Virus record (IMG/VR): IMGVR_UViG_2531839668_000011
Span: 1 to 43,678 of that record
Reading direction: 5' to 3' (one strand)
From: a virus
Taxonomy: Duplodnaviria > Heunggongvirae > Uroviricota > Caudoviricetes
Length of the DNA stretch: 43,678 bases
The translations under genes and the position numbers were made by a program. Shown piece by piece: positions 22,787-23,375 of the stretch (positions are counted from its first letter, which is position 1; each line of letters starts with the position of its first letter). A model generated the notes under the pieces. The model saw only the letters and a program-made list of their open reading frames with translations. It searched no databases and was not told where the DNA came from.

Positions 22787-22993
22787 AGTCAGTGCTGACC
22801 ATCAACAGGAGGTTTTTACAATATGGTACAGATGGTGCGCTCATCACCGGACTGACCTTTCTTGACCCCAAAGATGCCACACAGGTTCAGGGGCTGTTTC
22901 AGCATTTGCAGGTCAGGTTTGGTGACGGGCCGTGGCAGGATGTTAAGGGGCTGGATGAAGTGGGCAGTGATACAGGCAGAACAGGAGAATGAC

Positions 22994-23263
22994 ATGAACG
23001 TACTAAAAAAACTTATGCAGCGTCTGTGTGGTTGCGGAAAGCATGATGGCCGTGAACACGTGCAGTCGCTTACAGCACAACTGCGACTGGGGCCGGCAGA
23101 CATCATGGAGTCCGATGAGAATGGTATTATTCCGGAGCAGGCCAGGGTAATCACGCAGGTGGTGATACTGGATGCGGATAAAAAGCAGATACAGTGTGTG
23201 GTAAGACCGCTGCAAATCCTGCGTGCTGACGGGACGTGGGAAAATATTGGCGGAATGAAATAG
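22994..23263 (+). CDS. Hypothetical protein preceding the nleG cluster
   Basis: 89 aa with AGGAGA ribosome-binding site; its 3' ~100 bp plus terminator is duplicated (degenerate) at 24040-24176. Confidence 0.35.
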   Translation: MNVLKKLMQRLCGCGKHDGREHVQSLTAQLRLGPADIMESDENGIIPEQARVITQVVILDADKKQIQCVVRPLQILRADGTWENIGGMK

Positions 23264-23375
23264 CCGACAGCTTCACAAAAACCGGAGTCCGGCTCTGGTT
23301 TTTGTTGTCACGTATGGGGGATGTTTGTTACAGCTATTTAAGTCTGGAGTTCAAATTAAAATAGGGAGCTTTGTT

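Follow-up and report, generated by a model that had tools for sequence, protein, structure and literature searches.

The Sp prophages of E. coli O157 Sakai are lambdoid elements that combine non-LEE effector cargo with deletions or disruptions of the morphogenesis region, while their terminase genes are usually intact (PMC2669165). Other prophages of that genome supply heads and tails, so that several defective ones are packaged, and Sp11 and Sp12, whose int genes are disrupted, show no excision, replication or packaging (Asadulghani et al. 2009, PMC2669165). Phage satellites (P4-like elements, PICI and capsid-forming PICI) offer a further point of reference, being integrated elements which miss some or all virion genes and carry a packaging signal. 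Their own features are a conserved, compact architecture of ~10-20 kb, dedicated hijacking genes, and recurrence across lineages.

The locus considered here resembles both in outline. The window, by which we mean the whole 43,678-nt stretch of DNA that was analysed, comprises two lambdoid prophages in tandem, the first of which (prophage 1) is a lambda/21-like prophage of an attaching-and-effacing E. coli. Its packaging genes are followed by 589 bp (22787-23375) and then by effector genes. We consider these 589 bp to be, very probably, the scar of a single late-operon deletion of ~15.07 kb in a prophage which is decaying and immobilised.

Setting of the locus

The chromosome of E. coli O157:H16 98-3133 (NZ_CP051001.1), the closest complete genome, is collinear with the window and 99.99% identical to it, save for one difference of 2,594 bp. 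In that record, prophage 1 begins at an intact tRNA-Ser gene (serU) adjoining mtfA, and its integrase gene, int1, falls outside the window, ~4.3 kb past the left edge. A lysis cassette (holin, lysozyme and lysis protein) is annotated there for prophage 1, while a DUF1133 protein encoded at 7986-8549 also matches Phage_antitermQ and provides a Q-type antiterminator. Prophage 1 thus displays the hallmarks of a lambdoid prophage, namely insertion at a tRNA gene with duplication of the att core, together with integrase, lysis cassette and Q-type antiterminator. Further pseudogenes occur in prophage 1 of this near-identical record. The boundary between the two prophages is marked by the following features.

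26643..26704, + strand: 62-nt 3' portion of tRNA-Ser, attR of prophage 1 and attL of prophage 2; the longest suffix of the intact int1-adjacent tRNA-Ser of 98-3133 that is present in the window
26757..27782, - strand: prophage 2 integrase, 341 aa, start of the second, more degraded prophage; Pfam Phage_integrase, 324 of 341 residues identical to the DEC5B integrase

Prophage 2 extends over 18.5 kb, from this att site to a 31-nt tRNA fragment just beyond the window. It contains the integrase, a RecE-like exonuclease, an early region of dicB/dicA/dicC type, replication-like genes, and a cargo of nleB2, nleC', nleH' and nleF. Its counterpart in the collinear 98-3133 record is annotated without Q, and lysis, terminase, head and tail genes are likewise missing. 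In 98-3133 and in strain BA92, RefSeq marks both integrases as frameshifted, though the ORFs measure 341 aa, the same length as the int2 ORF of strain DEC5B, which RefSeq leaves unflagged.

The packaging block

The region from cos to the head protease gene C is arranged as follows.

16908..16919, + strand: cosN, the 12-nt cohesive-end site; exact match to the lambda dodecamer GGGCGGCGACCT
17103..17612, + strand: terminase small subunit Nu1; Pfam PF07471, E 1.5e-18, full length
17584..19512, + strand: terminase large subunit gpA; Pfam GpA_ATPase and GpA_nuclease, each full length
19496..19702, + strand: gpW head-tail joining protein; Pfam PF02831, E 1.5e-21, full length
19699..21291, + strand: portal gpB, lambda family; Pfam Phage_portal_2, profile positions 2-354 of 354
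21281..22786, + strand: C, head protease/scaffold, S49 peptidase, 501 aa, the last intact morphogenesis gene; Pfam PF01343 and PHROG 53

The cos region (~16880-17100) is lambda-like, with cosN flanked by CGGTTACG...CTCGCGGGTTTTCGCTATTTATGAAAATTTTCCGG, and cosN/cosB are followed by Nu1, A, W, B and C in lambdoid order. PHROG 53 (head maturation protease) spans residues 1-501 of C. Across Nu1, W, portal and C the window shows zero differences from 98-3133, whose protein accessions for these four genes are those of the intact prophage of DEC5B (for example WP_000235451.1 for Nu1 and WP_001253988.1 for C). The exact cosN, the full-length Pfam matches and the PHROG 53 match confirm the view, first put forward in a preliminary description of this DNA, that cos, terminase, W, portal and C are intact and lambda-like.

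The interval after C and the deletion junction

Between C and the cargo, the interval 22787-23375 holds a deletion junction, the stumps of two genes and one intact small ORF.

22823..22828, + strand: stump of the decoration gene D, ATG and GTA only; in DEC5B, D begins 37 nt after the C stop with ATGGTAACGAAA, and in the window ATGGTA passes into tail-fibre sequence
22825..22828, no strand: deletion junction, 4-bp microhomology GGTA present in both parental sequences; from the alignment to the DEC5B locus (L002)
22829..22992, + strand: 3' stump of stf (side tail fibre), last ~55 codons; 99.8% identical to the DEC5B stf 3' end, with the same stop codon as in the 98-3133 annotation
22994..23263, + strand: complete 89-aa ORF, a tail-fibre C-terminal domain; Pfam PF06820 (Phage_fiber_C), E 1.6e-34, and PHROG 576 'tail fiber protein', 1-89 of 89

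The parental sequences come from the orthologous prophage of E. coli O55:H7 DEC5B (NZ_CP038389.1, ~2,084-2,111 kb, at serU), in which the morphogenesis region is complete. Its gene order runs C, D, E, FI, FII, Z, U, V, G, T, H, M, L, K, I, J, lom, stf, the 89-aa ORF, IS2, four nleG genes and a second integrase, and none of the genes from D to stf carries a pseudogene flag. Two segments of the window align to it.

Window 16001-22828 with DEC5B locus L002 29-6851: 99.4% identity
Window 22825-23261 with DEC5B locus L002 21922-22358: 99.8% identity

Mapping of the endpoints against intact relatives, which the preliminary description had proposed, could therefore be carried out at base level against DEC5B: positions 6852-21921 of its locus, a total of 15,070 bp reaching from D to most of stf, are absent from the window. 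The left endpoint is codon 2 of D, and the right endpoint spares the last ~55 codons of stf. At the join, GGTA is shared by the D sequence (...CAATATGGTA followed by ACGAAA) and by the stf sequence (...CCCGGGTA followed by CAGATGG). Since it has been mapped to the nucleotide against two relatives, the junction is not a chance resemblance. We rejected the idea that the right endpoint is a mosaic boundary of stf: the positions that differ from DEC5B lie over 50 nt upstream, within the collagen repeats, and around the endpoint stf is native and continuous.

In other respects DEC5B and the window agree closely. They share the integration context, the cos-to-C module (99.4%), the 89-aa ORF and the second prophage integrase after the cargo, and the four NleG proteins of DEC5B have accessions identical to those in the 98-3133 annotation. 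Unlike the window, DEC5B has kept all 17 genes from D to stf and has an IS2 after the 89-aa ORF.

The stf stump is not in frame with the start codon of D and is read instead from an upstream ATG at 22783. The resulting chimeric 69-aa ORF (22783-22992) matches the C-terminal 45 positions (20-64) of Pfam Phage_fiber_C with an E-value of 2.7e-22, that is, the C-terminal two thirds of the profile. The 89-aa ORF also lies downstream of stf in intact relatives. A stf stump and its small downstream partner of 89 aa cannot make a tail. According to the preliminary description, nothing resembling D, E or tail genes follows C, and no capsid or tail genes were to be seen between 22787 and 26640. This stands for the head and the tail shaft, as D, E, FI, FII, Z, U, V, G, T, H, M, L, K, I, J and lom are all missing from 22787 to 26640 and no capsid gene in that range has support from Pfam, PHROG or NCBIfam. 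It does not stand for the tail fibre, of which two ORFs with Phage_fiber_C matches persist (22783-22992, the stump, and 22994-23263, the 89-aa ORF). From the full head (D, E, FI, FII) and tail (Z to J, stf) set of a viable phage, two codons of D and ~55 codons of stf remain.

The effector cargo

As had also been described, nleG genes and then the att core come next: four nleG genes precede the 62-nt tRNA-Ser piece at 26643-26704.

23376..23951, + strand: nleG family effector gene 1; Pfam T3SS_NleG, E 1.5e-44
24036..24190, + strand: second, degenerate copy of the 89-aa ORF's 3' end and its hairpin/T-run, ahead of nleG 2; 83-86% identical to the first one and to its DEC5B counterparts
24242..24823, + strand: nleG family effector gene 2; PHROG 808, with RefSeq 'T3SS effector NleG family protein' at the matching position
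24896..25525, + strand: nleG family effector gene 3; PHROG 808, E 2.5e-79, product recorded with Pfam T3SS_NleG in related loci
25607..26248, + strand: nleG family effector gene 4; PHROG 808, E 2.6e-72, product recorded with Pfam T3SS_NleG in related loci

Members of the NleG family carry PF06416 in the C-terminal part of a protein of ~190-215 aa. For gene 1 this was found by scanning it directly, while genes 2-4 are assigned through their PHROG 808 matches and through products which carry PF06416 in related loci. A terminator scan of 22700-24300 found none, and the hairpin/T-run after the 89-aa ORF is therefore not claimed as a terminator. A 55-aa ORF at 26279-26446 bears the RefSeq name 'capsid protein'. 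It has no Pfam, PHROG or NCBIfam match and we consequently treat this name as unsupported and reject the ORF as a hidden capsid gene. Its cluster contains a single long protein, which is CysNC-like and unrelated.

Distribution of the junction and a natural deletion series

Positions 16994-29263 of the window are an exact substring of contig AFAE02000010.1 (GCA_000194645.2), which was reached through its 89-aa ORF and makes this assembly the probable source of the window. A 141-nt junction probe occurred in one piece in none of 5,426 complete E. coli genomes, and an exact look-up of the chimeric 69-aa ORF in a collection of ~15 billion proteins returned no entry. Among the contigs examined which encode an identical C protein, the majority continue from C into D, E and onward, and only the AFAE contig passes from C directly to fibre remnants. 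The architecture is thus confined to one assembly and is not conserved across independent lineages.

The closest genome is itself deleted in this region, in a different pattern. Three smaller deletions (DEC5B 6852-8486, 9032-9674 and 11432 to ~21615) have left 98-3133 with FI'/FII', U', V, G and a T'-stf' fusion, and relative to it the window is without L001 9330-11922 (2,594 bp). D and E are gone from both. Besides the 2,594 bp, the window differs from 98-3133 by only a few single bases. Four of these differences fall in a 17.4-kb stretch around the junction, two being indels in homopolymers and two C/T changes.

Sister strains extend this comparison. The exact 89-aa protein is present in 28 contigs, and contigs encoding it, together with the complete genome of O2:H16 BA92, amount to a series of naturally occurring deletions in one prophage. 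These loci are at least 99.9% identical in the cargo region and differ in the morphogenesis region, giving at least nine architectures on nearly identical sequence, or at least eight patterns besides that of the window. Below, a prime denotes a truncated gene.

L006, L007 and L012: T' joined to stf' only
98-3133: three deletions (DEC5B 6852-8486, 9032-9674, 11432 to ~21615)
Window (L009): D to the stf 3' end
L010: E' joined to G', and T' joined to stf'
L011: U' joined to stf'
L013: lysis region to E', and Z' joined to stf'
L014: two internal head deletions, and T' joined to stf'
L005: portal truncated and followed by a P4-type integrase, also truncated, which is fused to stf (portal', int', stf')
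BA92: lysozyme' joined to J', and J' joined to lom'; cos, terminase, portal, C and all head genes removed

The losses vary, taking cos and terminase in some variants, the portal in others and tail genes only in others, while the nleG cluster is kept in every deletion variant. The consistently retained feature across sister loci is therefore the effector cargo, and the pattern is what unselected decay of virion genes with retention of cargo is expected to produce. It speaks against any purpose behind the survival of the cos-to-C block.

Decay and its alternatives

The reading we favour is that of a decaying prophage. In the event we propose, codon 2 of D would have been joined to the last ~55 codons of stf via the 4-bp microhomology GGTA. 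The deletion would have taken every gene from D to lom along with most of stf, and spared cos, Nu1, A, W, B and C upstream as well as the nleG cargo downstream. That cos and terminase survive would then be owed to the chance position of the deletion and not to selection for a helper-dependent lifestyle. Mapped junctions of the sister loci show microhomologies of 1-9 bp, from which we infer RecA-independent illegitimate recombination; replication slippage or end joining would each fit. Prophage 1 is unable to make heads or tails, and its lysis and packaging proteins are probably still expressible on induction. With an essential module deleted and its att sites and cargo retained, it has the make-up of a cryptic prophage with effector cargo, an exchangeable effector locus. 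The preliminary description had stated that prophage 1 cannot build particles alone and yet retains a packaging site and terminase, which agrees with an intact cos-to-C block followed by the loss of D to stf. Decay was one of two explanations that it offered, and this one is upheld by the near-identical intact relative, the many sister deletions and the other pseudogenes in 98-3133. Three observations pull against decay: the packaging genes are without inactivating mutation, as would also be expected of a selected helper-dependent element; 98-3133 has 2,594 bp more at the junction, so that the junction rests on one draft assembly; and the left endpoint falls within 0-4 nt of an endpoint in 98-3133, which purely random deletion would not predict.

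The other explanation offered was mobilisation by a co-resident helper. Here prophage 1, or an array of prophages 1 and 2 of ~49.5 kb, would be packaged by another lambda-like phage and would spread nleG together with the nleB/H/F cargo. The intact cos, Nu1, A, W, portal and C are what such an element would need, and in Sakai defective prophages with head or packaging defects are indeed packaged through complementation by other prophages (PMC2669165). The same study provides the counter-example of the int-disrupted lambdoid prophages Sp11 and Sp12, which neither excise nor package, and both integrases of the present array are flagged as frameshifted in 98-3133 and BA92, despite the length of 341 aa that they share with the unflagged DEC5B ORF. 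A helper would also have to be found. Prophage 2 was rejected for this role, having neither structural genes nor Q, lysis or terminase genes. In 98-3133, a query made of a cos-Nu1 fragment and an anchor matched four places, namely the anchor, prophage 1 and two others, so that two further places resemble the cos-Nu1 segment, a point in favour of the helper reading. The corresponding capsid query combined the fliC-H16 anchor, which brings 98-3133 among the matches listed, with 640 nt of E, the major capsid gene of DEC5B; the anchor was the sole place matched, and the chromosome of 98-3133 thus holds no lambda-E-type capsid sequence detectable by blastn. Size points the same way. The lower limit for packaging by lambda is ~78% of its length, and prophage 1, at ~31.0 kb against a calculated ~46.1 kb for the intact form, reaches 67% of its own intact length and 64% of lambda's. 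The composite from attL1 to attR2, with a calculated ~49.5 kb and one cos, lies inside the lambda packaging range and is the only size-compatible substrate, an arrangement which we note and do not count as evidence. As the architecture is found in one assembly only, and as sister strains have deleted cos, terminase or portal just as readily, we regard helper mobilisation as possible in principle, unsupported here and highly improbable.

A further alternative is that the junction is an artefact, the true structure being that of 98-3133 (C, FI'/FII', U', V, G and T' joined to stf') with 2,594 bp dropped from the draft contig. Identity to 98-3133 is 99.99% on both sides, few single-base differences accompany the 2,594 bp, and no independent assembly contains the junction, all of which favour such an error. 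The join nevertheless has an overlap of only 4 bp and no repeat liable to collapse in assembly, and alternative deletions in this prophage are real and common, being found in draft and complete assemblies from different laboratories. We therefore judge an artefact to be very unlikely. The main conclusion would in any case survive the 98-3133 structure, in which D and E are likewise absent and the tail module is fragmentary.

Recurring deletion endpoints

Several endpoints recur at the same nucleotides in independent strains. The clearest series lies in the first of the collagen-like repeats of stf, at their start, where CCCTG^TCGGGGCAACCGG (CCCTG^TCGGGG) serves as right endpoint for four left partners: T, U, Z and the P4-type integrase, the last coming from an island that sits within the portal gene of another lambdoid backbone. 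The native context of this site is seen in BA92 and in four IMG/VR contigs. In 98-3133 the start of D (AATATGGTA) forms the left endpoint of a junction with FI, and in the window that of a junction with the stf 3' end; the two left endpoints agree within 0-4 nt. A palindrome in FI, GGATATCC, is used twice, as right endpoint in 98-3133 and as left endpoint in L014. A scan of IMG/VR for the stf hot-spot sequence returned native contexts and one T'-stf' junction, and no new partners.

One might propose that the loss of morphogenesis genes is driven by hot spots and is not random, independent deletions reusing nucleotide-level endpoints because of a site-preferring break or template switch. We hold this to be rather unlikely. 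If true, such a process would strip virion genes and spare the cargo. Recurrence may be read either as hot spots in the intact phage or as later deletions starting at older scars, and candidate causes include hairpin-prone sequences, restriction-type breaks at GATATC and secondary deletions that begin from older scars. Folding predicts hairpins for the stf and D-start sites, with breakpoints in or beside the loops; their z-scores against shuffled sequences were -0.74 and -1.51, which is no significant gain in stability, the other endpoints gave nothing, and hairpins are not established as the cause. EcoRV-type breaks at GATATC would account for three of the 15 mapped endpoints, on two of the eight sites in the region, and the L005 and D-start junctions do not fit them. 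The T'-stf' scar itself creates a new GATATC site.

Comparison with known systems

By itself, the finding carries little weight, adding one more defective lambdoid prophage that fixes type III effectors (four nleG genes) in the chromosome. It is of modest use in three ways. An intact cos, terminase and portal beside effector cargo does not amount to evidence of mobility unless the presence of a helper and the conservation of the architecture are checked. The sister strains, moreover, document a fast loss of virion genes with the cargo kept, and the reuse of endpoints in this series is a concrete, testable oddity concerning the dismantling of prophages.

Among phages, phage 21 (OL657228.1, M81255.1) is 97.4% identical to prophage 1 from gpA through C, and the PhiR12 phages are 96% identical over the whole cos-to-C stretch. 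The cos/Nu1 part of prophage 1 (the first 786 nt of the query) is not phage-21-like, and cosN is the lambda dodecamer. Unlike prophage 1, phage 21 and PhiR12 continue into D, E and the tail genes.

The likeness to phage satellites is limited to integration, missing virion genes and a packaging signal. Prophage 1, a lambdoid prophage of 31 kb, bears a one-off deletion and has a near-identical relative that is intact, and the annotation of the near-identical 98-3133 record, which is what was consulted on this point, lists no helper-interference or capsid-redirecting genes. The Sakai Sp prophages share with prophage 1 a lambdoid backbone, effector cargo, a damaged morphogenesis region and, usually, an intact terminase. 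The difference lies in their surroundings, as other lambdoid prophages supply heads and tails in Sakai and 98-3133 is without a lambda-E-type capsid gene. The kind of object described here, a defective lambdoid prophage with effector cargo, is accordingly already well known, and its mildly surprising element is only the reuse of endpoints across sister strains.

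Recurring deletion endpoints

Across the window and the related loci L005 to L015, drawn from different strains, the same nucleotides have been reused as deletion endpoints. The recurring positions are as follows:

window 22825-22828, the deletion junction of prophage 1
L002 (E. coli O55:H7 DEC5B, the intact relative) 6847-6851
L002 8493-8500
L002 9650
L015 (BA92, O2:H16) at about 20000

Four different left partners are joined to the point where the collagen repeats of stf begin, and two right partners to the D start codon. A palindrome within FI, GGATATCC, has served as an endpoint twice. 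Microhomology at these junctions amounts to only 1-9 bp. Accounts of the recurrence based on hairpins or on the motif GATATC are both weak.

A possible gain and older lesions in prophage 1

The 89-aa tail-fibre-domain ORF has a second, degenerate copy of its 3' end just ahead of the second nleG (24036-24190), 83-86% identical and including the hairpin and T-run. This copy suggests that nleG cassettes were gained along with a terminal fragment of the fibre gene.

Between the tRNAs and lysis genes of prophage 1 (11300-14500), several truncated genes are annotated in the near-identical record of 98-3133 (E. coli O157:H16), namely DUF1737', two DUF6645 fragments, DUF826' and YdfR'. All are common to BA92 and 98-3133, and they are lesions older than the head and tail deletions. 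The tRNAs themselves form a cluster of three (10221-10470), downstream of a DNA methyltransferase gene; the first is called tRNA-Met (CAT) by ARAGORN, whereas RefSeq gives tRNA-Ile.

Prophage 2, sequence differences and annotation

Prophage 2 (26705-43678) is an 18.5-kb remnant in which the effector genes nleB2, nleC', nleH' and nleF stand in place of the late half. A low-GC insert (0.31-0.33) at approximately 35.0-38.0 kb codes for a SMEK-domain protein and a SAM methyltransferase.

Over 13501-30899, the window departs from 98-3133 at four positions and nowhere else (16371, 25552, 27123 and 30311): two are indels in homopolymer runs and two are C/T substitutions. At 30311, a G3-versus-G4 run, the RecE-like exonuclease of prophage 2 is split into ORFs of 101 aa and 744 aa, where 98-3133 has a single one of 823 aa. 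The split may reflect either a genuine frameshift or an error in sequencing.

The 55-aa ORF at 26279-26446 is labelled 'capsid protein' in RefSeq, and its exact protein occurs on at least 1000 contigs. As it has no match in Pfam, PHROG or NCBIfam, this label seems to be an error carried over from one record to another.

An island in a portal gene

In L027 (NZ_CP031134.1, locus 2140-6644), a lambdoid prophage carries an island within its portal gene, which is truncated as a result. The P4-type integrase of this island recurs in L005 (4900-5523), one of the related loci, where it breaks off at codon 146 and is joined to stf. Besides the integrase, the island codes for an HTH regulator, a Bro-N protein and an Icd-like protein. 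It looks like a satellite-type element integrated in a prophage structural gene.
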